A DNA stretch of 64,000 nucleotides from Kofleriaceae bacterium (GTDB lineage: Bacteria > Myxococcota_A > Polyangia > Haliangiales > Haliangiaceae), in NCBI GenBank assembly GCA_965223575.1, contig CBDCWZ010000010.1:1-64000 (forward strand), read 5' to 3'. Below are positions 1-28,204 of this stretch, piece after piece (positions within the stretch are counted from its first letter, which is position 1; each line of letters begins with the position of its first letter). Both the position numbers and the translations under genes were made by a program. The notes beneath the pieces are model-generated. The model saw only the letters and a list, made by a program, of their open reading frames with translations, did not search any database and was not told the origin of the DNA.

Positions 1-35
1 AGTAGGCCTACTTCATGCATCGCGTACAGCGTCTT

Positions 36-73
36 ACGGGATTCGAACCCACGACCTCCAGCTTGGGAAGCAG
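36..73 (-). repeat. partial 3' fragment of tRNA-Gly (anticodon-stem 3' side, variable loop, T-arm); 34-nt direct repeat of tRNA-Gly at 11490-11564; att-like island boundary
   Basis: gggattcgaacccacgacctccagcttgggaagc is identical at 40-73 and 11502-11535. No matching 5' acceptor half lies upstream on the minus strand. Confidence 0.6.
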
Positions 74-327
74 CAACTGCATAGTTATAGTTGTCGAGAA
101 CAACTGCGATTTTTAACTATTACAAAATGATAGCTGTGACCTGCCGTGGCAGCAAAGGTCCCAAAGTGACGGACAAAGGGGGTGAAATAGGGGGTGAAAT
201 TTCTGTAGCGCAACGATACGACCAAATTCTTGCGCAATTGGCCCTCAGGAATCAAACTGAACGGGCGTTATGAACTGGGAACAAGTTAGACAAGAATAAT
301 CCAAACCAGTGGCTTCTGATTGAAGCA

Positions 328-531
328 GTGGCGGCGCATACAGACAATGGTACGCGCGTTGTTGAAGAGATTGTCGTCATCTCCTCATTTGATGACTCCA
401 AACAAGCGCTACAAGCGTACCTTGCTAGTCATAAACAAAATCCAACGCAAGAGCTTTATGTTGCTCACACGAGCAGAGAAGCTCTGGATATCAAAGAGCG
501 TAAGTGGGCTGGTGTCCGAACAGCCGCATGA
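328..531 (+). CDS. hypothetical small protein upstream of retropepsin-like pseudogene
   Basis: 67-aa ORF with plausible composition; no recognisable motif. Confidence 0.25.
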   Translation: MAAHTDNGTRVVEEIVVISSFDDSKQALQAYLASHKQNPTQELYVAHTSREALDIKERKWAGVRTAA

Positions 532-918
532 CACCAATAAAGCTCACTCTCCAAGGTGGTTTACCCTTCGTCTCTGCAACAATTGTCCATCGTGGGCAAC
601 AGATTCACGTTAAAAACGTTCTGGTCGACACCGGCTCTGGTGGAACGGTCTTTGCTGCTGATGACCTAGTAGAAATTGGCATTCTTCCTGAGCCCCGCGG
701 ATGAATTGCACCGTCTTTCCGGGATTGGTGGGACCGAGTACGTTTACAGCAAGACCATCGAAAACCTTGCCGTGGGTAGACTGTCCGTTGACAAATTTTG
801 CATCGAGATTGGAGCACTCGACTACGGGTTCGCTATTCAAGGCATTCTTGGCGTTGACTATCTGAGAGCTGTTGACGCTGTCATTGACCTAGAGCAGTTA
901 ACCCTGCATGCCAACTAG
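504..918 (+). pseudogene. retropepsin-like (clan AA) aspartic protease, frameshifted
   Basis: VLVDTGSGGTVFAADD (DTGS catalytic motif) in frame of 504-704; C-terminal ILGVDYL block continues in the 676-918 frame. Confidence 0.55.
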
Positions 919-930
919 GGGGTGTCCTCA

Positions 931-1284
931 TTAGATCCAGAGGATGGCGCAGGCCAGGAGAAGGAAACCGAGGTAACTTGTTGCCGTTTTTTCATAGCGT
1001 GTTGCGATCCGTCGCCAGCGCTTGATGGTGTGAAAGAAGCATTCCACAAGATAACGCTGCTTGTACATCTCCTTGTCATGCCGGCGTTTCCTCTTCCTTG
1101 ATTTGCCTGATGGAATTACCGGTTTCAGGCCGCGCTCTTTGAGTTCACTAATGATTCGGTCCGAATCGTACGCTCCATCTGCGAGAACAGCTTCACCGTG
1201 AACATAGTCGATCAGTTCCTCGGCCACGGTGGAATCGTGCTGCTGTCCTGGGGTAACAAGGATATGGATAGGTCGTGCTTTCAT
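931..1284 (-). CDS. IS5-family transposase OrfB (DDE catalytic part), expressed by -1 frameshift from OrfA
   Basis: ADGAYDSDRI...YKQRYLVECFFHTIKRWRRIATRYEK, DDE_Tnp_1 C-terminal signature. Confidence 0.8.
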   Translation of the reverse strand: MKARPIHILVTPGQQHDSTVAEELIDYVHGEAVLADGAYDSDRIISELKERGLKPVIPSGKSRKRKRRHDKEMYKQRYLVECFFHTIKRWRRIATRYEKTATSYLGFLLLACAILWI

Positions 1285-1331
1285 GTCGACCGCAACATGG
1301 ATCTTCGTGGAGAAACCGCCCCTTGAGCGAC

Positions 1332-1673
1332 CTATTTCGTTTTTTTTGGACCGCCCTTTCCACCCGAAGCATCCTGATGAGTGCGAACAACGGAACCATC
1401 TAGGATCGCACCGATCTCATCATCGTTCAGGCACAAGGCGCGAAATATGTCACGCCAACGGTCCTTGTTCGCCCAGCGCCAGAATCGATTGTACACAGTC
1501 TTCCACGGACCAAATCGCTCAGGAAGATCTCTCCACGGTGCACCCGTTTTTCCAATCCAGTGCACTGCGTTGATAAAACTTCGGTCTCCCCTTTTCGACG
1601 TTTGACCGTGTGGGGGCGGAAGGAGTCCCTCTATCTTGTTCCACTGTTCATCACTGAGTTCGTGGCGCCTCAT
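1332..1673 (-). CDS. IS5-family transposase OrfA (DUF4096-type N-terminal DNA-binding part)
   Basis: MRRHELSDEQWNKIEGLLPP...GAPWRDLPERFGPWKTVYNRFWRW, typical IS427-group OrfA. Confidence 0.8.
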   Translation of the reverse strand: MRRHELSDEQWNKIEGLLPPPHGQTSKRGDRSFINAVHWIGKTGAPWRDLPERFGPWKTVYNRFWRWANKDRWRDIFRALCLNDDEIGAILDGSVVRTHQDASGGKGGPKKTK

Positions 1674-1777
1674 ATAGTGATGTTGATCAATGATCAGTTC
1701 CCGGCGCCAGTTTTTGAACCAACGGCCGGCTAACCGATCGAAATGATCCAGTTTCTAATAGGGACATCCCCTAGTAC

Positions 1778-2257
1778 TTGTCTACCAGTCTACAAAGCGC
1801 GCATAGCCATACCAACGGACCAAAACGCATGATATCTGACCAGCTAGGTATAATTCGCAGGAAGTATTTTCCCACGAAAGTGTTGCAGTCCATCAGCCGA
1901 AATCGGGTAAGAGAAAATCCGGGCCAATTAGAAAACTATGTTCGGGCCCGTCACTTACTGTTATCAGGTGATCCGAACATCACGAGTATCGCCCAAGCTC
2001 AATGTGCAAAATGGTTAAAATGGATTCAATATTGCGATGGGAAAGGACTGATCAGCGAGGCAGCAGTCCCCCGGGGACGTTCTCAGCATCTGCCGACAGT
2101 CTGTCTACCTCGCTCTGAAGCAGTGAGCAGAAGTTTCAGTCTGGCGCGGTTAAAAGCCGTTCCCGCGCCCAGGTTGGACGCCGGTGTTGTACCGGTCATC
2201 CGAGCCCCGTCCCCATTCCTGCGTCACGACTCCCAGAAGCGGAGGGCGATGGGGTAA
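1778..2257 (+). CDS. hypothetical; N-terminal ~35 codons lie on a DNA segment repeated at 10300-10420
   Basis: similar DNA at 1845-1945 and 10310-10420 (…GIIRRKYFPTKVL…NPGQLEN versus …NIVRRKFFPAK…NPEQLED); may be a repeated non-coding element rather than a gene. Confidence 0.2.
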   Translation: MSTSLQSAHSHTNGPKRMISDQLGIIRRKYFPTKVLQSISRNRVRENPGQLENYVRARHLLLSGDPNITSIAQAQCAKWLKWIQYCDGKGLISEAAVPRGRSQHLPTVCLPRSEAVSRSFSLARLKAVPAPRLDAGVVPVIRAPSPFLRHDSQKRRAMG

Positions 2258-2732
2258 TCGACGGGTCGCCGCCTGTGAAGCGAACGCTGGCGCTGACAAC
2301 GGGGGCGCGGACTGGGACGAGGACGGGAACAACACTGACCACACGTACTACGACCCCAATGTACTTTGAGTTCGTGCAGCGTGGCGGCGACGCGCATTGG
2401 GTCTGACTATTTGCCGCGCACCAACAGTATTTGCTGTCGTCAAGAACTATTCTTTGCTATAATCGTTTTCACGAACGAGACGAACAATGACTCGCATGTT
2501 TGACATAGCCGCGACACAACCAGCGCCGAGAAAACATCTCGAGCGGCAGGGTACGTGCGCGCGCTTTAGCGATTCCGGGTTATCAGCCAGGCCAGTAGAA
2601 AGTTCGCGTATTTATCTCGCCGGCAACCTGATCTGGAATCCAGAAAGTGGGGCGGCTATGTCATGAAGCTAGTCAAATAGCACCGAGACACAGCCGTCCC
2701 AGGAAAACCTCGGACGGCTTTTTCGTGTTTCG

Positions 2733-2874
2733 GGGGGCACTCCACGGGTTGGTTGCCGCGGCTGTAAACCGCTTGCACGAGGGTTAACTAGGGTCCTTCG
2801 GACCCGTTGCCAGGGCCGAAAAATTCCATTGCATGGAATTTGTTCACCAACCTGGTCGAGTCCTTCTGCCCCCA
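2733..2874 (+). tRNA. tRNA-like, anticodon GTA (Tyr) with class-I (short) variable loop, interrupted in T-loop by 71-nt B-family element (2786-2856)
   Basis: acceptor gggggca/tgccccc; anticodon loop ctgtaaa; spliced T-arm gaggg-ttcgagt-ccttc is perfect; D-arm atypical. Confidence 0.45.
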
Positions 2875-2984
2875 CGACGGGAGACGTGCGCCCAGAAAAT
2901 GGCGCACACGAAAAACAATGACAGCGAAGCGAAAGGAAAAACGATGACGATGACAAAACGAAAACGGATGTGCGGACAACTTCT

Positions 2985-3126
2985 GCCTCCGTGACGCAAC
3001 GGTAGCGTAACCGACTTTTAATCGGAAAGTTGGGGGTTAACTAGGATGCTTCGCATCCGTTGACGCCACGGTATAAATCCAGCGAACTGGATTTATACCG
3101 TAAGGCGGACGATTCCCTCCGGGGCA
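2985..3126 (+). tRNA. tRNA-Lys(TTT) interrupted in T-loop by 71-nt A-family element (3039-3109)
   Basis: acceptor gcctccg, D-arm acgc-aacggta-gcgt, anticodon loop cttttaa; GGTT|[insert]|CGATTCC restores ggggg-ttcgatt-ccctc; 6/7 acceptor pairs. Confidence 0.55.
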
Positions 3127-3226
3127 CGACCGCGTTGCTGAAGATTTTGCAGAGCGTAGTGGACGCAGTCCACGGAGCTGCAAAAGTTCAGGCGCGTTAA
3201 CGGTCCTGTAGGGACCCAGTTAATCA
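3126..3226 (+). repeat. B-family structured spacer (forward orientation, variant hairpin), directly follows tRNA-Lys 3' end and precedes tRNA-Gln
   Basis: CGCGTTGCTGAAG…hairpins…GGTCCTGTAGGGACCCAGTTAATC; other forward copies at 3300-3371, ~3925-4030, 5343-5410, 5690-5788 begin right after tRNA discriminator bases and end in CCTAGTTAAC(C). Confidence 0.6.
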
Positions 3227-3227
3227 T

Positions 3228-3298
3228 TCGGAGATCGTCTAACGGTAGGACGACTGGCTCTGGACCAGTAAATCGGGGTTCGAATCCCTGTCTCCGAC
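3228..3298 (+). tRNA. tRNA-Gln(CTG)
   Basis: acceptor tcggaga/tctccga; anticodon loop ctctgga; T-arm cgggg-ttcgaat-ccctg; no encoded CCA. Confidence 0.7.
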
Positions 3299-3504
3299 CG
3301 CGTTGCTGAACAAATTCAACGAAGTGGAATTTTTCAGCCGCGATAACGGGTCCGAAGGACCCTAGTTAACCAGAACGAAACTGCGGTGTTCGCGACACGA
3401 GTGCCTTGAGTGGCCAGGGTGAACGACATCATCGGTGGATTCGCGATCTTTGACAACTGAATAGCGACGACGACAACGCGGGGCGTTTCCCGACGCCCCA
3501 TTTC

Positions 3505-3576
3505 CCACTTTGGCGTAGGTGGTCCGCGCGCCGGTCTGAAGAGCCGGAGGACCTGGTTCGATTCCAGGAGGGTGGG
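3505..3576 (+). tRNA. tRNA-like, possibly Phe(GAA); weak D-arm
   Basis: T-arm cctgg-ttcgatt-ccagg perfect; acceptor ccacttt/agggtgg with 2 GU; anticodon loop ctgaaga. Confidence 0.35.
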
Positions 3577-3749
3577 ACTTTTGCGGGTTCGTGGTGAAAC
3601 AGGATCATACCGGGTTCTTACCCCGTGAGTGAACTGCGCGCGGCCGAAGGCCGTGCTCGTTACCGCGGTTGAAAAATTCCAGTTTGTACTGGAATTTGTT
3701 CAACAACGCGGTGAGCGTGCAAATCGTTCCGGACCCACTACTCGCGTTT

Positions 3750-3893
3750 GCCCCTGGAAGCATCTGGGCGAGGCTAGCCGGCTGTCTACCGGCCGAGGAG
3801 GGTTAACTAGGATGCTCCGCATCCGTTGACGCCACTGTACAAATCCAGCGAACTGGATTTGTACAGTAAGGCGGACGATTCCCTTCAGGGGCG
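3750..3893 (+). tRNA. tRNA-Asp(GTC)-like interrupted in T-loop by 71-nt A-family element (3805-3875)
   Basis: acceptor gcccctg/caggggc perfect; anticodon stem gccgg/ccggc, loop ctgtcta (position 37 = T, unusual); spliced T-arm gaggg-ttcgatt-ccctt. Confidence 0.5.
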
Positions 3894-4042
3894 CTTTGGA
3901 AGCGCAAGCCAACTGGCGATGGCACCCGATTCGACCGGGTTGCTAAACTTTTGCGAAGCAGAGCGGATGTTCGTCCGCGGAGCTGCAACAAGTTTAGACG
4001 CGGTGACGGGTCCGAAGGACCCTAGTCAACTCGGGGCAGGTT

Positions 4043-4117
4043 AACTGCGCGCGCCTTCGGCGTGCTCGTTAACGCCGCTGTACAACTCCAGTTGCTGGAT
4101 TTGTACAGCAAGGCGGA
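4043..4117 (+). repeat. A-family variant element followed by an orphan tRNA 3' half (T-arm + acceptor 3')
   Basis: GGTT|AACTGCGCGCGCCTTCGGCGTGC…AAGGCGGA|CAACTCC restores gcagg-ttcaact-cctgt + cgcttcc; no 5' half upstream (occupied by a B-family copy). Confidence 0.45.
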
Positions 4118-4227
4118 CAACTCCTGTCGCTTCCGCCGATGGAAGGTAATCAGGCTGCGGAGCCTGGCCCGGCTGCTACCCGGTGCGCGCCAACAGCGTC
4201 TGGCTCGACTCCAGTGCCTTCCGCAAT

Positions 4228-4302
4228 GGCCCGGTCGTCTAATGGTCAGGACACGAGGCTTTCAATCTCGGAATCGGAGTTCGATTCTCCGTCGGGTCAC
4301 CA
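4228..4302 (+). tRNA. tRNA-Glu(TTC), CCA encoded
   Basis: close match to canonical bacterial tRNA-Glu (TCGTCTA..GGTCAGGACAC…CTTTCAA…); acceptor ggcccgg/tcgggtc; T-arm cggag-ttcgatt-ctccg. Confidence 0.8.
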
Positions 4303-4303
4303 C

Positions 4304-4375
4304 GGGCTGATAGTGATAGTGGGAACACGCTGCTTTCGCACGGCAGAAAGCCGGGTTCGAATCCCGGTCGGTCCA
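4304..4375 (+). tRNA. tRNA-Ala(CGC)-like
   Basis: acceptor gggctga/tcggtcc (GU pairs); anticodon loop ttcgcac; T-arm ccggg-ttcgaat-cccgg; begins 1 nt after preceding CCA. Confidence 0.5.
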
Positions 4376-4391
4376 CTTTAGCTCCTTCAAT

Positions 4392-4467
4392 GGGCACGCA
4401 TGTACCAAGGGGGCGAGCTGGCCTTGCAAGCCGGCTGTGGTCGGTTCGATTCCGACCGTGTCCACCA
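4392..4467 (+). tRNA. tRNA-Ala(TGC), CCA encoded
   Basis: acceptor gggcacg/cgtgtcc; anticodon stem ctggc/gccgg, loop cttgcaa; T-arm gtcgg-ttcgatt-ccgac; D-arm atypical. Confidence 0.55.
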
Positions 4468-4528
4468 TCCAATACCAGGTGTAAGTCAGCGGCAGACGGC
4501 ATCGTTTGGGACGATGCAGACGGAGGTT

Positions 4529-4599
4529 AACTAGGATGCTCCGCATCCGTTGACGCCACTGTACAAATCCAGCGAACTGGATTTGTACAGTAAGGCGGA
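4529..4599 (+). repeat. 71-nt A-family element inserted in T-loop of a tRNA-Pro(TGG)-like pseudo-tRNA (about 4470-4623)
   Basis: flanks GTT|…|CGATTCC restore ggagg-ttcgatt-cctcc followed by agggggc-a-CCA; anticodon loop tttggga; 5' acceptor does not pair, so pseudo-tRNA. Confidence 0.5.
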
Positions 4600-4634
4600 C
4601 GATTCCTCCAGGGGGCACCACACGCATCGATCTT

Positions 4635-4708
4635 CCGCCGGTAGTTCAACGGGAGAACTGTCGCCTGATAAGCGGCCAATGGTGGTTCGATTCCACCCTG
4701 GCGGACCA
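4635..4708 (+). tRNA. tRNA-Ile(GAT), CCA encoded
   Basis: acceptor ccgccgg/ctggcgg; D-arm gttc-aacggga-gaac; anticodon loop ctgataa; T-arm ggtgg-ttcgatt-ccacc. Confidence 0.8.
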
Positions 4709-4709
4709 T

Positions 4710-4784
4710 GGTGATCGTAGCTCAAAGGTAGAGCACTCGGCTGTGACCCGAGCGGTGGGAGTTCGATTCTCCTCGATCACCCCA
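4710..4784 (+). tRNA. tRNA-His(GTG) with encoded G-1, CCA encoded
   Basis: G-1 + gtgatcg/cgatcac, discriminator C; D-arm gctc-aaaggta-gagc; anticodon loop ctgtgac. Confidence 0.8.
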
Positions 4785-4796
4785 ACTTCCTTTTCA

Positions 4797-4870
4797 GCGG
4801 GCTTGGCGTAACAGCAGCGTATCAGGCTTCCAACCTGAGGGTACGGGTGCAATTCCCGTAGCCCGCACCA
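4797..4870 (+). tRNA. tRNA-Gly(TCC), CCA encoded
   Basis: acceptor gcgggct/agcccgc; anticodon stem tcagg/cctga, loop cttccaa; T-loop tgcaatt. Confidence 0.7.
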
Positions 4871-4872
4871 AC

Positions 4873-4943
4873 GCCTTCGTAGCACAGGGGCAGTGCACTG
4901 GTTTCGTACTCCAGGGACGTGGGTTCGATTCCCGCCGAAGGCT
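4873..4943 (+). tRNA. tRNA-Thr(CGT)
   Basis: acceptor gccttcg/cgaaggc; D-arm gcac-aggggca-gtgc; anticodon loop ttcgtac; T-arm gtggg-ttcgatt-cccgc. Confidence 0.7.
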
Positions 4944-4947
4944 CCGC

Positions 4948-5018
4948 TTCGGTGTCGTCCAACGGCAGGACAGCGGTCTTTGAAGCCGACGACCGGGGTT
5001 CGAATCCCTGCACCGGAA
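4948..5018 (+). tRNA. tRNA-Gln(TTG)
   Basis: acceptor ttcggtg/caccgga; D-arm like the Gln(CTG) copy; anticodon loop ctttgaa; T-arm cgggg-ttcgaat-ccctg. Confidence 0.6.
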
Positions 5019-5022
5019 CTGC

Positions 5023-5096
5023 GCCTCTCGTAGCCATCTGGGAAGGCACCTGCCTTGTAAGCAGGCTAGGCGGTTCGATTCCGACGAGGGGCTCCA
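5023..5096 (+). tRNA. tRNA-Thr(TGT), CCA encoded
   Basis: acceptor gcctctc/gaggggc; D-arm agcc-atctggga-aggc; anticodon stem cctgc/gcagg, loop cttgtaa. Confidence 0.7.
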
Positions 5097-5101
5097 TCTA
5101 T

Positions 5102-5173
5102 TCCTCCGTGGCTTAACGGTAGAGCACCCGGCTGTTAACCGGGGATGTGCAGGTTCGACTCCTGCCGGGGAGC
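5102..5173 (+). tRNA. tRNA-Asn(GTT)
   Basis: anticodon stem cccgg/ccggg, loop ctgttaa; T-arm gcagg-ttcgact-cctgc; acceptor tcctccg/cggggag with one mismatch. Confidence 0.6.
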
Positions 5174-5176
5174 TAT

Positions 5177-5329
5177 GTCGCTATCGTCCAGTTGGCGAGG
5201 ACGCCGGTCTCTCAAGCCGGAAACGGCGGGTTAACTAGGATGCTTCGCATCCGTTGACGCCGCTGAACAAATCCAGCGAACTGGATTTGTTCAGCAAGGC
5301 GGGCAAGTCCCCCTCCCCTAGCGACGCCA
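5177..5329 (+). tRNA. tRNA-Glu(CTC)-like interrupted by 71-nt A-family element (5233-5303); 3' T-arm degenerate; CCA encoded
   Basis: acceptor gtcgcta … tagcgac-g-cca; anticodon stem ccggt/gccgg, loop ctctcaa; T-stem ggcgg then GTT|insert|CAAGTCC plus a C-rich tail. Confidence 0.4.
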
Positions 5330-5543
5330 TGCGATCGTCGACCGCGTTGCTGAACAAATTCAACGAAGTGGAATTTTTCAGCCGCGGTAACGAGCACGCC
5401 GAAGGCGCGCGCAGTTAACAAGAGCTATTGAGGCCAAGGGGTTGACTAGGGTCCTTCGGACCCGTCACCGCGGCTGTAATCCTCCAGTAAACTGGATGAT
5501 TACAGCAACGCGGTCGATTCCCACCGTCGGCTCCAATCACTAT

Positions 5544-5615
5544 GCCTCCACCCAAGGATGGGACGCGGCGCTACGAACGCTGTCGATGAAGGTTCGAGTC
5601 CTTCTGGAGGTGCCA
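5544..5615 (+). tRNA. tRNA-Arg(ACG), CCA encoded; short D-arm
   Basis: acceptor gcctcca/tggaggt; anticodon stem cggcg/cgctg, loop ctacgaa; T-arm gaagg-ttcgagt-ccttc. Confidence 0.65.
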
Positions 5616-5617
5616 AT

Positions 5618-5687
5618 ACCACCGCACGTGGACTCGTGGCCTGGGGTTCCGAACCTTGGTGAAGCAGTTCGATTCTGCTCGGTGGAC
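5618..5687 (+). tRNA. tRNA-Arg(CCG)-like
   Basis: T-arm agcag-ttcgatt-ctgct; acceptor (a)ccaccg/cggtgga; anticodon loop ttccgaa with a GU-rich stem. Confidence 0.4.
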
Positions 5688-5793
5688 CGGGTTGCTGTAG
5701 TTATGCAAAGCGGAGCGGACGGAAGGTCCGCGAAGTTGCAGAACTACAGGCGCGATAACGGGTCGAGCGTAGCGAAACCCTAGTTAACTTCAT

Positions 5794-5860
5794 GGGCGAC
5801 GATCTGGGATCAGCTTGGGCTCCAAATCCGAGCAGCGGGGTTCAATTCCTCGGTCGCCTG
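5794..5860 (+). tRNA. degenerate tRNA-like (67 nt), anticodon unclear
   Basis: acceptor gggcgac/gtcgcct and T-arm cgggg-ttcaatt-cctcg, but no canonical anticodon arm. Confidence 0.25.
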
Positions 5861-5870
5861 CAACTCTTGC

Positions 5871-5943
5871 AGTCGCGTAGCCCAACGGAAGAGGCGGCAG
5901 GCTTAGAACCTGTGTGTTGGGGGTTCGAATCCTCCCGCGACTA
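5871..5943 (+). tRNA. tRNA-like, class-I structure with anticodon TAG (Leu codon CUA) - noncanonical
   Basis: acceptor agtcgcg/cgcgact; anticodon stem gcagg/cctgt, loop cttagaa; T-arm ggggg-ttcgaat-cctcc; 5-nt variable loop. Confidence 0.45.
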
Positions 5944-5946
5944 CTG

Positions 5947-6091
5947 CGGTACGTAGCCCAATCGGCAGAGGCATCCAGTTTAAGCCCGGACCAGTGAGGG
6001 TTAACTAGGATGCTTCGCATCCGTTGACGCCACTGTACAAATCCAGCGAACTGGATTTGTACAGTAAGGCGGACGACTCCCTCCGTACCGA
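5947..6091 (+). tRNA. tRNA-like (apparent anticodon TAA, class-I) interrupted in T-loop by 71-nt A-family element (6003-6073)
   Basis: acceptor cggtacg/cgtaccg perfect; spliced T-arm gaggg-ttcgact-ccctc perfect; anticodon stem has one mismatch. Confidence 0.45.
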
Positions 6092-6098
6092 CCTTCGA

Positions 6099-6243
6099 GC
6101 CAACGTAGCCCAACTGGCAGAGGCACCGGATTCAAATCGCGGACAGTATCGGTTAACTAGGATGCTCTGCATCCGTTAACGCCGCCGAACAAATCCAGCG
6201 AACTGGATTTGTTCAGCAAGGCGGACGACTCCGATCGTTGGCA
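6099..6243 (+). tRNA. tRNA-like (anticodon region ttcaaat, possibly CAA) interrupted in T-loop by 71-nt A-family element (6155-6225)
   Basis: acceptor gccaacg/cgttggc perfect; spliced T-arm atcgg-ttcgact-ccgat perfect; anticodon stem poorly paired. Confidence 0.4.
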
Positions 6244-6249
6244 CAAAAC

Positions 6250-6408
6250 GCGGACGTGGTGGAACGGGATACACGCAACGTTGAGAGCGTTGTGAGCCAC
6301 GTGCTCAATGCCGGTTAACTCGGGGCCTTTGGACCCGTTCTCGGGGCTGAAAAATTCCACGATGTGGAATTTGTTCACCAACCCGGTCGAATCCGGCCGT
6401 CCGCACCA
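6250..6408 (+). tRNA. tRNA-Leu(GAG), class II, interrupted in T-loop by 71-nt B-family element (6317-6387); CCA encoded
   Basis: acceptor gcggacg/cgtccgc perfect; anticodon stem caacg/cgttg, loop ttgagag; long variable arm gagc-cacgt-gctc; spliced T-arm gccgg-ttcgaat-ccggc perfect. Confidence 0.65.
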
Positions 6409-6441
6409 TCCAGAAACATCAACCCTCAACGAAAGGCAGCC

Positions 6442-6972
6442 ATGACGGCTCAAACACTGTTGTTGTCCGCGGGCTATGAGCCGATCAAGGTCGTCTCTTG
6501 GCAACGCGCGATAACCTTACTCACGCTCGGCAAGATCGAAGTTCTGGAAGAGTATGATCGCGAAGTTCGATCCCCGACCATTGCGTTTAAGATGCCTGCG
6601 GTCGTTCGACTTTTGCAGGTACTCAAGCGCAACAAGAAGGCAGTCAAGTTCTCGCGCATCAACATCTATGCGCGGGATAAGTACCGGTGCCAATACTGCT
6701 GTCGAAAGCTACCCATCGCCGAGTTGACCTACGACCACGTCGTTCCGCGCGCGAAGGGTGGCAAGACGATTTGGCAGAACATCGTGACCGCATGCGAAAC
6801 GTGCAACAGCCGCAAGGGGAACCGGACGCCGGAGCAAGCGCACATGGCGTTGCTCAACCGGCCAACACGGCCGACTTGGGTCCCGGTCATGACGCTTCGG
6901 GTAAACCGCAACACGGCGCCCGATGCCTGGAGAGACTATCTCTACTGGACCGGTGAACTGCAAAGCGGCTGA
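6442..6972 (+). CDS. HNH endonuclease (small McrA-like HNH nuclease) embedded in the tRNA array
   Basis: CQYCCRKLP…LTYDHVVPRAKGG…CETCNSRKGN (HNH His-metal finger); RBS GAAAGG before the ATG at 6442. Confidence 0.8.
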   Translation: MTAQTLLLSAGYEPIKVVSWQRAITLLTLGKIEVLEEYDREVRSPTIAFKMPAVVRLLQVLKRNKKAVKFSRINIYARDKYRCQYCCRKLPIAELTYDHVVPRAKGGKTIWQNIVTACETCNSRKGNRTPEQAHMALLNRPTRPTWVPVMTLRVNRNTAPDAWRDYLYWTGELQSG

Positions 6973-7029
6973 CCGCACACCGAATGCCACGGGCCACAGA
7001 TCGGATCCGCGAGCCCGCCGGCATTCACT

Positions 7030-7117
7030 GGAGAGACAAACCGATTGGCGACGGTGCTCGGCTTGAACCCGAGTGAGCGTAACTGCCTTAGGGGTTCGAC
7101 TCCCCTTCTCTCCGCCA
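7030..7117 (+). tRNA. tRNA-Ser(TGA), class II, CCA encoded
   Basis: acceptor ggagaga/tctctcc; anticodon stem ctcgg/ccgag, loop cttgaac; long variable arm; T-arm agggg-ttcgact-cccct. Confidence 0.8.
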
Positions 7118-7118
7118 T

Positions 7119-7203
7119 GGAAGGCATCCGAATGGTGAGGACCCCGGTTGGAAGCCGGGCGGGCGACAACGTTGCCTTGAGGGTTCGAGTCCCTCGCCTT
7201 CCG
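7119..7203 (+). tRNA. tRNA-Ser(GGA), class II
   Basis: acceptor ggaaggc/gccttcc; anticodon stem cccgg/ccggg, loop ttggaag; long variable arm; T-arm gaggg-ttcgagt-ccctc. Confidence 0.75.
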
Positions 7204-7207
7204 CTGC

Positions 7208-7276
7208 GCCTCGCGGGACGGATCCCAGCTGGGTCTTCTAAACCCGGCGCTCCAGGTTCAATTCCTGGGCGAGGTA
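7208..7276 (+). tRNA. tRNA-Arg(TCT)
   Basis: acceptor gcctcgc/gcgaggt; anticodon stem tgggt/acccg, loop cttctaa; T-arm ccagg-ttcaatt-cctgg; short D-arm. Confidence 0.55.
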
Positions 7277-7277
7277 C

Positions 7278-7345
7278 GGCTCCTCTGATGGACCAGTCCC
7301 GGCTCTTCTAAAGCTGGAGAGAGCGTTCGATTCGCTCAGGAGCCA
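7278..7345 (+). tRNA. tRNA-Arg(TCT), second copy
   Basis: acceptor ggctcct/aggagcc; anticodon stem cggct/agctg, loop cttctaa; T-arm gagcg-ttcgatt-cgctc. Confidence 0.55.
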
Positions 7346-7548
7346 CTTCGCGCCCCGAACACGCGAAGACTCCTACAGCTTCGCGCGTATTTCGCCACCT
7401 CAACCGTACTGGTCATTGATCCGGGTGGATGTCCGCCCATCGCACGCCGAACTTCGCAAGGTACTTGCGAACACGATCTGAATCGTTGGCGCTCGAGACT
7501 TGGGCGAAATCGATACGTTTCGAAATACGGCGAAATAAGGGGTCAGAC

Positions 7549-7582
7549 TGAAGTTATAACTTCAGTCTGACCCCACTTTTCC
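7549..7582. terminator. strong rho-independent terminator hairpin, probably bidirectional
   Basis: ggggtcagactgaagtt-ataa-cttcagtctgacccc followed by ACTTTT; T-rich on the complement as well. Confidence 0.7.
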
Positions 7583-7659
7583 CGTCAACCAATTCTCACG
7601 GCTTACTCCAGATTGTTGCCAGCATACGGTTCTCCCGCTATCTCTACTATAATCAATCA

Positions 7660-8850
7660 ATGCTCTGCGTGTTTTGCAATTCTCTGTTGCCTTCGAAGAA
7701 GCCCGAACATGTAGTGAGCGCCTTCCTCGGTGGAAGACGAAGCTCAAGGAATCTGCTCTGTGATCTCCACAATGAAACGTTCGGCGGCTCATTTGAACGC
7801 CACGCGGCCAAAGGACTAGCCTCTCTGGCGAACATGCTTGGTGTCAGGAGCGGTCGCCGGCGAGCACCGCCACAAATTCAGGGCATTAAGGGACCAGACA
7901 AGTCTGAGACTTACACGCTCTTGCCAGGAGCAAAGATCATTCAACCCAAAGCGAAGGTCGAGATCGACGAGTCGGAGAACGGGCAGGTTCGAATACGCAT
8001 CAGAGCTGATGCAACCAAAGGCCATCAGATCCATAAGATTCTGGAGAGTTTCGCAGCCAAGTACGGAACCACGCTAGACGAAACGATTTTAGCCCAAGCC
8101 AACGTTACACAGATTCAACTCCCATCGCCCATTGAACTTGATATCACCCTAGGGCCGGACCTGCTGCGTTCACTCTCAAAAATCTCGTTACTACTTCTCG
8201 CTACCAAGACCGGTACAGTCGCGGTTCGAGGCTCCGCCTTTGAGGATGTTCGCAGGTTCATCGAGATCGGCGGACCAAGCAGTGAGTTCATTCGGATGAA
8301 TTCGGCAGCAAAGCTACCAACCATAGTAGGTCTGCACGAACCAGCAGTAGCCGTGCATCGTTTTTTGGTGTACGCAACTCGCGAATTCGGCTGTTTTGCG
8401 ACAATCGAACTGTATGGATGTTTTCTATTCACAGGCCTTCTTTCCAAGGAGTGGAACTCTGAAAATATTAGCGTTGGCCACTCGGTCAACCCCATCACCG
8501 AGCAACACTTCGTAGCTTATAATTTCAGTTCATCACCAATTTCGATTGACCAATTTGCTACTATCAAAGGCGATCAGGTAGCCACCAATGGCCGGCTGGA
8601 CAATCTGTTGAGCTTCGCAATAAGGCGTATGCAACAGCAAGCTCTTGAAGAAATGGTCGCACGATGTATTAATGAAAGCATTGGTAAGAGCGAGGATGTC
8701 ATTACTGAGGAAATGATCGCCAAATTGACCATGTCCTTTGCCGAGCAGTTCGTTGCTACGCAGAAGGGATACGTTCTAGAGCGACAACTCACCATTGACG
8801 ACGTTATTCCTCGAACTCCGACAGGAGAGCCCGACGGCCCTGATGAGTGA
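7660..8850 (+). CDS. HNH_5-type nuclease domain protein (N-terminal HNH, uncharacterised C-terminal ~300 aa); defence-like standalone gene
   Basis: CVFCNSLLP…PEHVVSAFLGG…LCDLHNETFGG fits the C.YC…EH.IP.SLGG HNH_5 pattern. Confidence 0.6.
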   Translation: MLCVFCNSLLPSKKPEHVVSAFLGGRRSSRNLLCDLHNETFGGSFERHAAKGLASLANMLGVRSGRRRAPPQIQGIKGPDKSETYTLLPGAKIIQPKAKVEIDESENGQVRIRIRADATKGHQIHKILESFAAKYGTTLDETILAQANVTQIQLPSPIELDITLGPDLLRSLSKISLLLLATKTGTVAVRGSAFEDVRRFIEIGGPSSEFIRMNSAAKLPTIVGLHEPAVAVHRFLVYATREFGCFATIELYGCFLFTGLLSKEWNSENISVGHSVNPITEQHFVAYNFSSSPISIDQFATIKGDQVATNGRLDNLLSFAIRRMQQQALEEMVARCINESIGKSEDVITEEMIAKLTMSFAEQFVATQKGYVLERQLTIDDVIPRTPTGEPDGPDE

Positions 8851-9102
8851 TATGGGGATGGTCGCGGTAGGAATGGCCCTTAGCACTCAAGGGTTCGGGC
8901 CACCCCCCGCACAGATCCCGGCGTGCACTACCAATGCACCGGGCTCCTGCCTCGGGTCAAACGCACAAGCGCTCGTTTGGATAAGGATGTGTGATGCGGA
9001 CTGTGGGGATCCATTTGTCTGCCAACCGATACATTCGCTTCCAGGTCATCCTGGTTTTGTCGCTTCGCCGCCTCAGGCTACGATACCACAAGTGGAGGGA
9101 AT

Positions 9103-9188
9103 GGGGACGCGTTTCGACGGGAATGGGGACGCGTTTCGGAAGTTCGGAACTTCACAATTAGATTTCCGAACTTTCGAAACACGTCCCC
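9103..9188. repeat. ~65-bp imperfect palindromic repeat (1.3 copies); family also at 10171-10234 and 11298-11360
   Basis: GGGGACGCGTTTCGGAAGTTCGGAAC-ttcacaattag-ATTCCGAACTTTCGAAACACGTCCCC; flanked by short tandem motifs (acgggatgg ×3; ccattgtt ×3). Confidence 0.8.
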
Positions 9189-9251
9189 ATTGTTCTATAT
9201 GGTCTGCCAATATTGGATCCTGGTTTTCGTGGGGTGCGAGGGACTGGTGCC

Positions 9252-9746
9252 CTACGCAGCGAAATCTTCTTCAACTACCCAGCCTTTTTTAGCTGAACGG
9301 AACCCAAGCCTGAGTGGTATTGCTTCTTCTTCGATTTCTTGCAGTCGATCGATAGGATATTGCTGAATTGGGTCAAAGGTGGTTGCTGCGAGTCGAAGAA
9401 GTCTATCTGCAGTCGAGTTCATTTTTTGCGATCCCGACTCCCATCGCGAAACCGTCTCACGCTCGACGCCAAAGTGTCGGGCGAAGTCAGTCCCAGACCA
9501 ACCGAGTGATTTTCTGAGGAATCGGATTTCCTCCGGTGTGAGACGAGCTGATTTGGTACTAATGGCATAGACGATGACCCGATGAAGTTCCTCGACTTTG
9601 GGAATCCCAACAAACGATTCACCGCACGCACCACAACGCTTTACATTCACACCAATCAAGGTGACGCGAACTCCTTGGGCGTCGTACAGGTGATTTTCTC
9701 TCGCTGACTTGAGTTGCCCACCACAATGTATGCACTTCATGTCCAT
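9252..9746 (-). CDS. MqsA/YgiT-like antitoxin (N-terminal CxxC…CxxC zinc finger + C-terminal XRE-type HTH)
   Basis: MDMKCIHCGG…CGACGESF then …RFLRKSLGWSGTDFARHFGVERETVSRWESG. Confidence 0.7.
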   Translation of the reverse strand: MDMKCIHCGGQLKSARENHLYDAQGVRVTLIGVNVKRCGACGESFVGIPKVEELHRVIVYAISTKSARLTPEEIRFLRKSLGWSGTDFARHFGVERETVSRWESGSQKMNSTADRLLRLAATTFDPIQQYPIDRLQEIEEEAIPLRLGFRSAKKGWVVEEDFAA

Positions 9747-9755
9747 CTCCTTGAT

Positions 9756-10076
9756 TCAGCGGCCCATACGCCATGCTGTAACGGCCACAAGCTCCAGCTC
9801 ACTCCAGAAAGCAACCACAACAGTGATGCGCTGCGTTCGGACCTGATATCTCCAGGAACCATTTTCCCATTCGCCCTCGCCGACAACGCCGCCACGCATG
9901 ACGTTGCTACAATCAATTTCCGACAAGTTGTCGTTCGCCATTTCCTGCCGTGCATGCTTTGAGTAATAGACGGTTCCATTGGTGATGATTTCTCGGATGA
10001 GCCGTTTTGCGTCCGAACTACTGAGTGGCTCATCCATATGTGATCTTATATCACATATTGACTTATAGTCAAACAC
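9756..10076 (-). CDS. DUF4258-family (RelE/ParE-fold) toxin partner of the MqsA-like antitoxin
   Basis: …YYSKHARQEMANDNLSEIDC…; 106 aa; immediately upstream in the same operon, 9-nt intergenic. Confidence 0.55.
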   Translation of the reverse strand: MFDYKSICDIRSHMDEPLSSSDAKRLIREIITNGTVYYSKHARQEMANDNLSEIDCSNVMRGGVVGEGEWENGSWRYQVRTQRITVVVAFWSELELVAVTAWRMGR

Positions 10077-10170
10077 TGAATCGAATGCCCCCTACTGATT
10101 GAAATATCAACAATTTCGATCGATTGGGAACTAGGGGGAACGGGATGGGAACGGGATGGGGAAACGGGAT

Positions 10171-10234
10171 GGGGACGCGTTTCGGAAGTTCGGAACTTTG
10201 CAATTAGATTTCCGAACTTTCGAAACACGTCCCC
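10171..10234. repeat. palindromic repeat copy 2
   Basis: same sequence family as 9103-9188. Confidence 0.8.
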
Positions 10235-10724
10235 ATTGTTTCTTCCTCATTGTTTCTCTCTTTCTGAAAAAAGGGGGTGAAACGAATAGACGTTTGTACC
10301 GAGGACCTTAATACATTGATCTCTGAGCAACTAAATATTGTTCGAAGAAAGTTTTTTCCTGCAAAACGTATTGAGGAACATCAGCCGAGGGCGAGTAGAA
10401 ACGAATCCAGAACAGTTGGAAGACTCCTCAACGACCCATTCTTTCTTAGCTGCACGAAACCCAACCCCCCATAGGTATCGCTTCCTCTTCGATCTCTTGC
10501 CGGTCAGGATCTCACCCGTCCGCTGAATGTTCCAGAGTGGCCGGCTTGAAGAACCTGGAAAGGGCGGGTGACGTACCGGACGTTACAGGGATCTGGGGTA
10601 CAAGCATCCGGATATTTGGGTTCCTGGGCATGACGGTAGTATTCTTCACTATGAACCCAACGAGTAGACTGGAGCGAACGCCCTCTTCGCGATAGAATGT
10701 GTGGATTGACCTGGGTATTGCAGT

Positions 10725-11273
10725 TTGGGAACAAAGGGGGGCATTTCTATGGTTCGTAAAGTTCTCATTGGACTGGCAGGATTAGCTGGTGTACTTGCCA
10801 CAGTTGCCTGGTTTACAACTTCGTCTCCCAATCAAAACGAGCTGCGAATGATCAATATTAAGAACGCCAAAAATTATTTGGGAGTGTTAGTCGGCGGGCA
10901 GCCCAGCGATGAGGAGCTGAGGCATGCCGCAAAGTCCGGCTATCAGACGATTATTAACTTGCGTACGGCTTCTGAACCGGGGAGCGCTGAAGAAAAAGTA
11001 CTCGCGGAAAAGCTCGGCCTTGTTTACGTTTCGATCCCGACAGCAGGGGAGGCCGGATTGACTCGGGAAAATGCAACAGCTTTGCACGAGGCACTCAAGG
11101 CGGCATCAGGGCCAGTCATGCTTCATTGCGGTAGTGGAAACCGCGTCGGTGGTCTGATTGCTTTGCGCGCACACTATTTGTTAGGAATGCCCGCCAACAC
11201 TGCGCTAGAGGAAGGCAAGAAAGCGGGTCTCACAGGACTCGAACCCGCTGTGACACGCATCCTCGGCCTGTAA
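10725..11273 (+). CDS. membrane-anchored phosphatase-like protein (TIGR01244/DUF442 'beta-lactamase hydrolase-like' dual-specificity phosphatase fold)
   Basis: HCGSGNRVGG (CX5R P-loop); N-terminal hydrophobic segment; start may be the ATG at 10749. Confidence 0.6.
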   Translation: MGTKGGISMVRKVLIGLAGLAGVLATVAWFTTSSPNQNELRMINIKNAKNYLGVLVGGQPSDEELRHAAKSGYQTIINLRTASEPGSAEEKVLAEKLGLVYVSIPTAGEAGLTRENATALHEALKAASGPVMLHCGSGNRVGGLIALRAHYLLGMPANTALEEGKKAGLTGLEPAVTRILGL

Positions 11274-11297
11274 CGGAACGACCAACTCAGGGGGGAT

Positions 11298-11360
11298 GGG
11301 GACGCGTTTCGGAAGTTCGGAACTTCGCAATTAGATTTCCGAACTTTCGAAACACGTCCC
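11298..11360. repeat. palindromic repeat copy 3
   Basis: same family; directly downstream of the phosphatase gene stop. Confidence 0.8.
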
Positions 11361-11489
11361 CATTGTTCCATTGTTTTCCCATTGTTTTCTTCGGGCTCGA
11401 TTAGGGGCGAACATCCTCACCGGAGCTGAAATGGAAAACGCCCGACCAGGAATGGAAACCTAACCGGCCGTCTTCAAACTGCTTTCGCG

Positions 11490-11567
<78 letters not shown>

Positions 11568-11733
11568 TGCGTTGTAAGTTACTGCAATACTTAAAGTTGT
11601 CAAGAGGCAATCCGGCATCGTTTCATTCATAAGTGCCTAGTCCCCGGTTTGGTCTCCGGTTTTTGGCAACAAACATCGGCACAATTTGGCGAATCCGATG
11701 CTACTGCTTTTCATCAAGCCCAACATTTGAATA

Positions 11734-11916
11734 GTGCTCTTGCATCTCGACGGTGACATGACCGGTCAACGCCCGCCGAACGACGGGGTCAATCTTCGCC
11801 CTTCGAATCATATCCGAAAACACGCACACGCTACGCTAAAGGTTCGCCAACAGCTACCAGTCAGGTGGTCGGATTCGCCCCAGGGCTTCGTCGGTTGCGA
11901 GTTCAAGTTCGGCTAA
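11734..11916 (-). pseudogene. C-terminal fragment of a tyrosine recombinase/integrase gene
   Basis: DNA 11750-11830 matches the 3' end of the integrase fragment at 20900-21000 (gtgaccggtcaacgcccgccgaacga…). Confidence 0.5.
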
Positions 11917-11929
11917 CTCGGTTACGGCA

Positions 11930-12330
11930 CCACGACTGGTCGTCTGCCCGTTTGCTCAAGTGGACGATGGGCTCCTAGGTCCGCCCACCAGATTTCACCG
12001 CACTTCATCTAGCATCTTCTTCATCTAGCATCTTCTTCATCTAGCATCTTCTTCAGCCAGCATCTCGCACCACTCATCTATTCCTTGATCGGCAAGGGCA
12101 AGATCTTCTTCCTCGCCGGTATTAGCGAGCCTATTTAGGTCCCACCGCGCGGGGTCGGGATGACGGAGCACAATCACAGAGACATGCTCGCCTTGGCGAA
12201 GATCTAGACGTTGGCTGGGTTTGAGCACACCGTCACTGTATTCAGCTTCGATCGGCTTCACATTCAATAGATTAGCACGTTCGGCAACTATGGGCTATCG
12301 CCGTGATTTTAGCCCTAGAAAAAGCAACAA
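11930..12330. repeat. ~400-bp direct repeat, copy 1 (copy 2 at ~32450-32860); carries a DUF104-like antitoxin gene and the 5' end of mazF
   Basis: long near-identical stretches, e.g. tttgctcaagtggacgatggg…ccaccagatttc…cttcatctagcatcttcttca…. Confidence 0.75.
12037..12267 (-). CDS. DUF104-like (COG2880) putative antitoxin
   Basis: MNVKPIEAEYSDGVLKPSQRLDLRQGEHVSVIVL; second, frameshifted copy at ~32657-32780. Confidence 0.5.
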   Translation of the reverse strand: MNVKPIEAEYSDGVLKPSQRLDLRQGEHVSVIVLRHPDPARWDLNRLANTGEEEDLALADQGIDEWCEMLAEEDAR

Positions 12331-28024: not shown

Positions 28025-28204
28025 CGCCTGATGCCCAGGCGCTCGCTCGTTTTCCGATCCGATATCGGAAATACGCTCGGTCGCCCGGACTTTGGCCAGT
28101 GATCATGCAGCTCTACATACTTTTCCGTGCGGAGGTTCATTTGGATCTTGCCTTTGTGTACTTGGTACATTAAGCTATGTGTATAGAGTACACAATAAGA
28201 AACC

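Follow-up and report, generated by a model that had tools for sequence, protein, structure and literature searches.

We analysed a 64,000-nucleotide (nt) window of DNA from a Kofleriaceae bacterium (assembly GCA_965223575.1, contig CBDCWZ010000010.1, positions 1 to 64,000), in which positions 2433–7494 (+) hold a mobile long tRNA array (L-array, or tRNA array unit) of an uncultured Myxococcota genome. The 5.06-kb unit contains at least 22 recognisable tRNA genes and about nine degenerate units, all in one orientation, and a gene for an HNH endonuclease of 176 amino acids (aa; 6442–6972, +). It is colonised by a family of non-coding two-hairpin elements of 71–100 nt (hereafter, inserts), many of which split tRNA genes. 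GC content is ~55%, and the best non-self matches of the host HflX protein are 64% identical, the named ones being from Nannocystaceae, Polyangiaceae and Myxococcota, indicating a divergent member of Myxococcota. The HNH protein has >1,900 homologues, and the window was compared with the contigs of its closest relatives, including loci L001 and L002 (HNH 96% and 86% identical, respectively) and L300.

ARAGORN called 16 tRNA genes directly, all on the + strand between 3228 and 7277, i.e., Gln-CTG (3228–3299), Phe-GAA (3504–3578), Glu-TTC (4228–4302), Ala-CGC (4304–4376), Ala-TGC (4394–4467), Ile-GAT (4635–4708), His-GTG (4711–4784), Gly-TCC (4797–4870), Thr-CGT (4873–4945), Gln-TTG (4948–5019), Thr-TGT (5023–5096), Asn-GTT (5102–5173), Leu-TAG (5871–5944), Ser-TGA (7030–7117), Ser-GGA (7119–7204), and Arg-TCT (7203–7277). 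The Rfam tRNA model agreed with these calls and gave weaker tRNA-like matches at 2985–3038, 3585–3737, 4141–4222 and 5793–5860. Outside the array, ARAGORN found one further tRNA in the window, Gly-CCC on the - strand (11490–11564). When the forward inserts were deleted in silico, six more genes were called, with normal cloverleafs and TTCRAnY T-loops. These are Tyr-GTA (2733–2875, T-loop split by the insert at 2786–2856), Lys-TTT (2984–3127, split by 3039–3109), Asp-GTC (3750–3894, split by 3805–3875), Leu-TAA (5947–6093, split by 6003–6073), Leu-CAA (6099–6244, split by 6155–6225), and the class II Leu-GAG (6250–6408, split by 6317–6387); the orthologues of Tyr-GTA and Leu-TAA are uninterrupted in L002 and that of Leu-GAG in L001. 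The resulting 22 confident tRNAs serve 15 amino acids at a density of ~4.8 per kb over 4.6 kb.

A lower threshold (ARAGORN -ps85) added Lys-CTT (3585–3738; Rfam, 30.2 bits), a Ser-GCT-like class II tRNA with an atypical T-loop (4141–4224; 30.8 bits with the Rfam tRNA-Sec model), and Trp-CCA (5792–5866; weak Rfam match, L002 orthologue called Trp). Inspection revealed Arg-ACG-like (5546–5619, uncalled by ARAGORN) and Arg-CCG-like (5623–5690) genes, the latter with its T-loop occupied in L001 (9148–9218), a second Arg-TCT-like unit (7278–7345), and the broken units of Ser-CGA (3897–4140), Pro-TGG (4477–4620), and Glu-CTC (5177–5330). All array genes are co-oriented (+), with gaps of 1–17 nt wherever no insert intervenes, a spacing that would permit co-transcription. 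The tRNA-Tyr and three of the four tRNA-Leu lack a long variable arm (72–76 nt, class-I-like), unlike what is expected of bacterial Tyr and Leu tRNAs. Such short tRNAs are located at 2733–2875, 5871–5944 (74 nt), 5947–6093 and 6099–6244 in the window, at 4886–4957 in L002, at 5908–5981 and 6809–6883 in L304, and at 4326–4862 in L303; similar short Leu tRNAs flank the HNH gene of Myxococcus phage Mx1 and occur in an Anabaena array.

A first-pass annotation, made from the letters alone, had placed an array of at least 20 tRNA or tRNA-like genes at 2733–7345. The array is real and its count holds (16 genes directly and 22 after insert removal), but the module is slightly wider. The tight packing it described was confirmed, with 1 nt between Glu and Ala, 2 nt between Ile and His, Gly and Thr, and Thr and Gln, 3 nt between Gln and Thr, and 5 nt between Thr and Asn. 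Genes with and without an encoded CCA both occur as it had noted, but its estimate of about half was somewhat high, as a terminal CCA is present in 8 of the 22. Duplicate isoacceptors were also found (two each of Gln, Thr, Ala and Ser, and four of Leu), but the second copy it had assigned to Arg-TCT (7278–7345) is merely tRNA-like and its L001 counterpart was called Arg-CCT. What had been listed as degenerate tRNAs and orphan halves are indeed there, but are actually exons of tRNA genes split by the repeated insert.

A total of 16 insert copies were detected in the window, all within the array (2786–6387). Sequence reading and a repeat finder placed the start of the repeat at ...GGTT|AACTAGG and its end at ...GGCGGA|CGATTCC or ...GCGGT|CGA. 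Eleven copies are in forward orientation (nine of 71 nt, one of 75 nt, and one of 81 nt) and five are reversed (71–100 nt). Ten of the forward copies lie between GGTT and CRAnYCC, i.e., in the T-loop between T55 and C56; the exception is the 81-nt copy (3632–3712, +), located at the variable-region/T-stem border of the Lys-CTT-like gene, a site that is empty in L001. The subfamily A copies, all 71 nt and forward (3039–3109, 3805–3875, 4529–4599, 5233–5303, 6003–6073, and 6155–6225), are 0–11 of 71 nt apart. They differ by 17–32 nt from subfamily B (2786–2856 and 6317–6387; both 71 nt, +) and from a 71-nt GAC...GTC variant at 5444–5514 (+) that is followed by a tRNA 3' fragment, a pattern that fits several waves of spread with A the most recent.

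The remaining copies occupy a range of positions. The Ser-CGA remnant, intact in L001 (6370–6456), has lost its variable arm and carries both a 94-nt reverse copy in the anticodon loop (3934–4027, -; TTCG^AAC, reading GTT^CGAA on the other strand) and a 75-nt forward copy in the T-loop (4043–4117, +; GGTT^CAA). A 93-nt reverse copy (3129–3221, -) lies in the spacer 2 nt past Lys-TTT and 6 nt before Gln-CTG, and a 71-nt reverse copy (3297–3367, -) within the 3' acceptor end of Gln-CTG displaces its native A-CCA end. A 76-nt reverse copy is located at 5341–5416 (-) and a 100-nt reverse copy at the 3' end of the Arg-CCG-like unit (5686–5785, -). The Glu-CTC-like unit, split by the copy at 5233–5303, has an irregular T-arm and was uncalled even after excision, and the Pro-TGG unit is a chimera in which the copy at 4529–4599 fuses the 5' portion of Pro with the 3' portion of a different tRNA.

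The 16 aligned window copies share 17 invariant columns, and RNAalifold predicted a 6-bp P1 hairpin followed by a long P2/P3 hairpin with an AA bulge, with compensatory changes in 11 of 21 pairs. P1 is extended by a covarying RAC...GUY (AAC/GUU versus GAC/GUC), whereas P2/P3 forms an almost perfect duplex of 19–20 bp with the AA bulge invariant. The geometry near the junctions is invariant and length changes are distal. Across 30 distinct element sequences, 18 of 24 pairs had changed on both sides and 92.8% of the cells were paired, compared with 25–41% in slid controls, and no shuffle attained the observed values; the alignment was fitted to the model, which favours structure, though the margin is large nonetheless. 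The helices contain 627 Watson-Crick, 3 G-U and 6 A-C pairs without strand asymmetry. Given the near absence of G-U pairs and of a preferred folding strand, the element resembles a DNA palindrome more than a typical functional RNA.

A covariance model built from ten copies was used to search the window and the relatives' loci, giving 16 matches in the window, 20–21 in L001, 3 in L300, and 2 in L023. The last is a metagenome-assembled genome (MAG) from a different study with an HNH protein 68% identical, and its two 80-nt copies are both in T-loops at GGTT^CGA. The model found no element in the other 78 genome loci, 97 IMG/VR loci and 80 metagenome loci (~2.7 Mb), of which the IMG/VR loci (~1 Mb) were mostly random controls and the metagenome loci had been retrieved by HNH guidance. 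A strict 71-nt IUPAC pattern had no match in 185,579 species genomes or in IMG/VR, so either the element is rare or this pattern was too strict. Searches of IMG/VR with a 15-mer from the element 3' end (CAGCAACGCGGTCGA) returned chance matches only, whose loci served as a negative control in which the covariance model found none, and a gapped element pattern returned two, both unstructured chance matches. Within 1–13000, no ribozyme, intron or known small RNA overlapped the element in Rfam at E ≤ 1, the only matches being spurious ones to microRNA hairpins, and self-BLAST of all array loci revealed no other families of mini-elements in the arrays.

Across 32 distinct sites the target reads (G)GTT^CRA, with G-3 in 30, T-2 in 32, T-1 in 31, C+1 in 31, R+2 in 30, and A+3 in 27. 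Comparison of the window, L001 and L002 showed that the element accounts exactly for the difference between a filled and an empty site, without target duplication or loss; it has no terminal inverted repeats. The BLAST alignments of the window and L002 break at the insert ends (e.g., window 6002|6074 = L002 9869|9870). Reverse copies were found in the anticodon loops of Ser-CGA and Ser-TGA, in the D-loop of Ala-CGC in L001, at the 3' acceptor ends of Gln-CTG and the Arg-CCG-like unit, and in a spacer, where the motif is on the other strand; orientation thus follows the motif strand and not transcription. Occupancy of the GGTTCRA sites in the window was 10 of 26 within the array and 0 of 25 elsewhere (hypergeometric p ~4e-4).

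The array of L001 is collinear with that of the window and, with the inserts removed, 93–99% identical to it by block. The two share 12 insert sites, while four are specific to the window (3632, 3934, 4043, and 6317) and 8–9 to L001. The latter include the Thr-CGT T-loop and Ala-CGC, which carries two inserts in L001; both genes are intact in the window. The array of L002 is the same, but its 22 tRNAs are uninterrupted and it carries no element. Such differences in insert presence between closely related arrays show that the elements moved recently and that they are mobile at the DNA level. The elements also serve as recombination substrates that delete or invert array segments. The left flank of the window copy at 4529–4599 corresponds to that of the L001 copy at 7041 and its right flank to that of the L001 copy at 7935, and at this joint the window misses ~0.9 kb present in L001 (Pro-GGG, Met, Ile-TAT, and Pro-CGG); recombination between two copies deleted the segment and left the chimeric Pro unit. 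The 27 nt between the inverted copies 5341–5416 and 5444–5514 appear inverted in L300, whose array is reduced to the leader, the interrupted Tyr, HNH, Ser remnants, and Arg.

Several known types of element and junction were considered and rejected. A group I intron was rejected on size (71–100 nt) and on the lack of an Intron_gpI or ribozyme match at Rfam E ≤ 1, and a bulge-helix-bulge (BHB) tRNA intron on the covariation-supported P1 plus P2/P3 structure and the lack of a 3-4-3 BHB at the junctions. An integron attC site does not fit a right junction of GCGGT^CGA or GGCGGA^CGA, as opposed to the G^TT crossover of a GTTRRRY core. The junction sequences also ruled out a hammerhead-type three-way junction, the core overlap of a serine or tyrosine recombinase, and a 2-nt staggered TT^CGAA cut with duplication.

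The array unit itself has moved among genomes. By blastn, the module at 2433–7494 is collinear with the arrays of L001 (4992–11132), L002 and L300, and the DNA outside it is unrelated in each, with arrays present in only some of the related MAGs. These results uphold the proposal of the first-pass annotation that this is a horizontally acquired tRNA island and not a core operon, for which it had suggested a synteny comparison. Its call of an internal HNH gene at 6442–6972 was likewise correct (HNH_5, E = 3.6e-17; HNH, 6e-15). The likeness it saw to cyanobacterial, mycobacterial and phage arrays extends to the nuclease, as HNH homologues adjoin arrays there too.

The HNH protein matched phrog_16726 over its full length and has a catalytic domain similar to that of IscB and of Cas9. 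Its nonsynonymous (pN, 0.017) and synonymous (pS, 0.18) divergence from the L001 protein indicates purifying selection. Homologues were found inside arrays of 10–40 tRNAs at ~30 of 80 Kofleriaceae/Haliangiales MAG loci and at 15 of 17 IMG/VR loci, between two 74-nt tRNA-Leu genes of Myxococcus phage Mx1, and, at 40% identity, just upstream of the Anabaena PCC 7120 delta-plasmid L-array, which has been studied experimentally (PMC8421152). The mycobacterial array units also hold a conserved HNH gene (PMC5966550, PMC12803027). In Kofleriaceae MAGs, ~60% of the homologues (about 50 of 80; loci L013–L082) are outside tRNA arrays, and some MAGs, e.g., DATLIC01 (L029 and L036) and DATJXL01 (L046 and L047), have both an array and a non-array copy.

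The module ends with the last 26 codons of rtcR (7416–7493, -; 96% identical to L001 RtcR by tblastn), which mark a former junction with the rtcR-rtcBA operon. In L001, the array still abuts rtcR, a RING-domain SCO0854-family gene, rtcB, and rtcA (11051–17538). The array lineage thus originally abutted this RNA-repair operon. RtcB genes or fragments stand beside the arrays of L005 (2028–3446) and L300 (369–611), and the window encodes RtcB at 33543–34691 (-), 27 kb from the array. In Anabaena, the L-array, the adjoining HNH gene all8564, and rtcB are co-regulated under translational stress (PMC8421152).

We consider it the most probable reading, though by no means a secure one, that a mobile L-array was colonised by selfish, T-loop-specific hairpin elements that are moved in trans, with most of the interrupted genes probably inactivated. 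The elements would then be selfish, non-autonomous mobile DNA mobilised by an enzyme encoded outside them; as they encode nothing, its action must be in trans. A circle of only 71 bp is physically implausible for double-stranded DNA, which favours a single-stranded DNA (or RNA) intermediate and recognition of the hairpins. Given the tiny size, the Watson-Crick hairpins, the seamless junctions and the occurrence of both orientations, the best fit would be a single-strand, hairpin-dependent cut- or copy-and-paste process resembling that of HUH/Y1 transposases, with endonuclease-driven homing and gene conversion as a second choice. Redundancy among the array tRNAs would explain why the elements persist there and nowhere else.

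A number of results weigh against this reading. No transposase, recombinase or reverse transcriptase could be linked to the element, and no Y1 (HUH) transposase was detected among the window open reading frames (ORFs) scanned. For an HUH/Y1-like process, P1 (6 bp plus 3) and P2/P3 (19–20 bp) are dissimilar hairpins, and beside the near-invariant 5' GTT the 3' flank (C+1, R+2, and A+3) is conserved too, which IS200/IS605-type targeting would not predict. As to inactivation, six of the ten T-loop-interrupted genes fold as canonical tRNAs once excised, and the interrupted Tyr gene was kept in the strongly reduced array of L300. There, the Tyr exons and element each have one difference from the window in ~71 nt (98.6% conserved), whereas the flanks differ by 16–19%.

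The divergence between the window and L001 bears on the same question. Element copies at shared sites have 5 differences in 908 nt (reverse copies, 0 of 340), compared with 6 of 449 in interrupted exons, 19 of 1180 in intact tRNAs, and 47 of 665 in spacers, and HNH has a synonymous divergence of 18%. Divergence is mosaic, i.e., ~18% in 2438–2652, ~0.6% in 2653–4190 including long spacers, and ~12% in the HNH 5' half, which indicates recombination or gene conversion among arrays in the population. As this inflates the unstratified contrast of rates, which had pointed to very strong constraint, a tract-stratified test took its place and gave weaker support; its tract boundaries were chosen after the data had been seen. 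In that test, elements had fewer changes than spacers (Cochran-Mantel-Haenszel p = 5e-4) and interrupted and intact tRNAs were indistinguishable (p = 0.98), neither of which would be expected of inert inserts in dead genes, so that both are to be counted against the selfish reading; interrupted exons were borderline (p = 0.05). Signs of decay relative to the intact L002 orthologues were seen in U8C of Tyr (common to the window, L001 and L300), in extra anticodon-stem mismatches of Leu-CAA and Leu-TAA, and in an altered acceptor stem of Lys-TTT. The comparison rests on four contigs, the related ones are of low coverage, and single-G indels in homopolymers may be read errors. Either the exons and elements are under selection, with the insert handled at the RNA level, or they were spread by recent gene conversion or homing.

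The first of these options corresponds to the alternative that survives best, in which the inserts are true introns that spread as DNA and are eliminated from the pre-tRNA, e.g., through cleavage by a structure-specific endoribonuclease and sealing by RtcB, so that the interrupted genes would still give functional tRNAs. We regard this as a tentative possibility. It accounts for the canonical cloverleafs and intact TTCRAnY T-loops of the six excised genes, for exons that diverge like intact tRNAs and elements that diverge less than spacers, and for the conservation of Tyr and its element in L300, where an acceptor-stem C-to-T change still yields a G-U pair. The constant geometry near the junctions with length variation confined to distal parts, the physical linkage of the array lineage to rtcR-rtcB-rtcA, and the co-regulation of the Anabaena L-array with rtcB (PMC8421152) also agree with it. 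However, 12 of ~41 copies are antisense to the array, some of them in anticodon or D-loops, and are likewise conserved. The strictly Watson-Crick helices without strand asymmetry are unlike a typical functional RNA, there is no BHB motif or ribozyme match, and Rtc operons adjoin insert-free arrays too (L005). Recent gene conversion could mimic constraint given the mosaic divergence, several interrupted genes bear damaging changes, and a 2026 survey of bacterial tRNA introns has none in tRNA T-loops (PMC13011429). A search of ~45 window ORFs against Pfam detected no EndA, whereas RtcB is present at 33543–34691. The fuller version of this idea, i.e., a new class of bacterial tRNA intron at T-loop position 55/56, cut by a protein endonuclease from polycistronic pre-tRNA and sealed by the neighbouring RtcB, is somewhat more doubtful still.

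It is unlikely, in our view, that the array HNH endonuclease drives the elements by cutting the empty GGTT^CGA site, with repair copying an element in (homing or collaborative homing) and the insert then protecting the site. All arrays with elements also carry the HNH gene, purifying selection on that gene is strong, recognition of both flanks would suit an endonuclease site, and the mosaic tracts of low divergence around the elements resemble co-conversion. The free-standing T4 endonuclease SegB is also described as preferring to cleave tRNA genes (PMC8421152). Yet >40 HNH-bearing arrays, including that of L002 with its 86%-identical HNH, have intact T-loops and no element. A generic T-loop cutter would attack its own array and the host tRNA genes, and non-allelic spread would need to use only ~4–7 nt of homology.

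Even less probable is a parallel with the intervening sequences of 23S rRNA, in which an RNase III-like enzyme would cut the P2/P3 duplex without religation, turning T-loop copies into two-piece tRNAs and inter-tRNA copies into discrete hairpin RNAs. The 19–20-bp duplex is near-perfect both ways, which would make processing independent of orientation, reverse copies lie within a few nt of tRNA ends, and both orientations are conserved. However, breaking the chain between positions 55 and 56 would abolish the elbow that the T-loop forms with the D-loop, and the conservation of P1, the AA bulge, and the site specificity would be left unexplained. That errors in assembling or sequencing a repeat-rich region produced the inserts has next to no plausibility: the related contigs are of low coverage (names ending in _2x to _7x) and the homopolymer single-G indels look like read errors, but identical sites with copy-specific variants recur in three to four independent contigs and in the separate-study MAG L023, the junctions are base-exact against the empty sites, and the hairpins are preserved by compensatory changes.

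Upstream of the first tRNA, a TGcTATAAT box resembling an extended -10 element (2455–2463, +) is conserved in alignments with L001 and L300 and may act as a promoter; it went unscored in the sigma-70 scan, which requires a -35. It is followed by a conserved 59-aa ORF heading the module (2487–2666, +), with tblastn matches in L001, L002 and L300 and none in Pfam, NCBIfam or PHROG, and by a GCCGTCC...GGACGGC hairpin and TTTTT resembling a terminator or attenuator (2693–2723, +; conserved in L001 and L300). This arrangement (2455–2723) precedes the first tRNA in the window, L001, L002 and L300, and may be a leader or attenuator controlling the array. At the other end, a perfect 16-bp inverted repeat (GGGGTCAGACTGAAGT TATA ACTTCAGTCTGACCCC) at 7539–7574, ~45 nt past the module end, may terminate transcription in both directions or be a trace of the rearrangement in which rtcR was truncated. 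Also just outside the module lies a 396-aa ORF (7660–8850, +). Near its N-terminus is a Cys/His motif weakly resembling HNH_5 (E = 1.4e-4, which falls short of the Pfam threshold); it matches no other family and has no counterpart in any of the related loci. A large serine recombinase gene is located beside the L001 array (1762–3873, -) and within the L002 array between Tyr and Lys (4967–7084, -). The two proteins are 71% identical, absent from the window, and candidates for moving the whole array unit.

The flanks include genes at 9252–9746 (-), 12677–19992 (-), 20867–25734, and 48059–49549 (-). They encode TmtA-like giant ORFs with transglutaminase and sacsin domains, a PDC-S27 homologue, an MqsA/RmrA-like helix-turn-helix protein, an integrase fragment, and IS66 TnpB and transposase genes. 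Some of these are candidate defence genes. The DNA around the array looks like an accessory or defence island, which supports the accessory setting claimed in the first-pass annotation. Macro/ADP-ribosylglycohydrolase, an NrtR-type NUDIX regulator, a second Macro, and DTW-domain (tRNA acp3U-type) proteins are encoded at 27000–29401 and 45504–46130, and could be related to RNA or tRNA modification and repair.

By the definition in PMC4758250, an L-array comprises 20 or more tRNA genes with no fewer than 2 per kb. L-arrays are further characterised as silent until induced by translational stress. The array described here resembles them in its ≥20 co-oriented tRNAs at >2 per kb, its redundant isoacceptors, its patchy horizontal distribution with non-syntenic flanks, an HNH gene conserved within or beside the array, the rtcB link (PMC8421152), and the short class-I-like Leu tRNAs. 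It differs in being riddled with a site-specific insert, which is unmentioned in the array literature examined. The literature searched contained no link of tRNA arrays to this Myxococcota lineage.

For the element, the closest comparisons are with mobile sequences that interrupt genes. Like group I introns, it is a mobile intervening sequence at fixed spots in conserved loops of tRNA-like genes, which it hides from gene finders. Group I introns, however, are ribozymes of at least ~200 nt with a P3–P9 core, located in the tRNA anticodon loop and always sense, whereas this element has 71–100 nt, no Rfam match, a T-loop 55/56 position and both orientations. Non-canonical archaeal introns reportedly spread among the tRNA genes of Thermoproteales, a process said to have been termed 'tRNA intron transposition' by Fujishima et al. 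in 2010. The resemblance lies in short related sequences in many tRNA genes of one genome, T-arm positions included; the archaeal introns have a BHB motif and are cut by EndA, whereas the present element has no BHB, a bacterial host and antisense copies, and we know of no EndA in this bacterial setting. IS200/IS605-derived PATEs and REP/REPIN elements are moved by HUH Y1 transposases. They share with the element a non-coding sequence of ~70–150 nt, hairpin ends, the lack of terminal inverted repeats and target duplication, precise insertion 3' of a short motif, and plausible single-strand intermediates, but not its unlike hairpins, its conserved 3' flank (CRA), or its preference for tRNA loops over intergenic targets. 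Rickettsia palindromic elements are selfish palindromes inside functional genes, mostly in-frame in protein genes. They too are small structured selfish DNA tolerated inside genes, but are without a defined target such as GTT^CRA; they are mentioned in PMC1458961.

According to the 2026 survey (PMC13011429), bacterial tRNA genes harbour group I introns in their anticodon loops and, rarely, group II introns, and T-loop introns, again of group I, are confined to transfer-messenger RNA. The literature searched gave no counterpart of the T-loop-specific element. The array with its HNH gene and Rtc link is therefore a further case of a known class, whereas the T-loop element is previously undescribed in that literature; it would be categorically new only if splicing were demonstrated.

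These findings add Myxococcota to the hosts of HNH-bearing, Rtc-linked L-arrays, and describe a small, structured element that is base-precise for the most conserved sequence of tRNA genes. As the insert splits genes, standard tRNA finders miss a third of them here, and similar arrays elsewhere may be under-annotated. If purely selfish, the element would offer a clean natural case of mobile DNA whose survival is limited to redundant gene copies, which it erodes by recombination. If instead it is removed from RNA, it would represent the first enzyme-dependent tRNA splicing in Bacteria, comparable to that of Archaea and Eukarya, and the RtcB encoded next to L-arrays would have a splicing role and gain a long-sought substrate.

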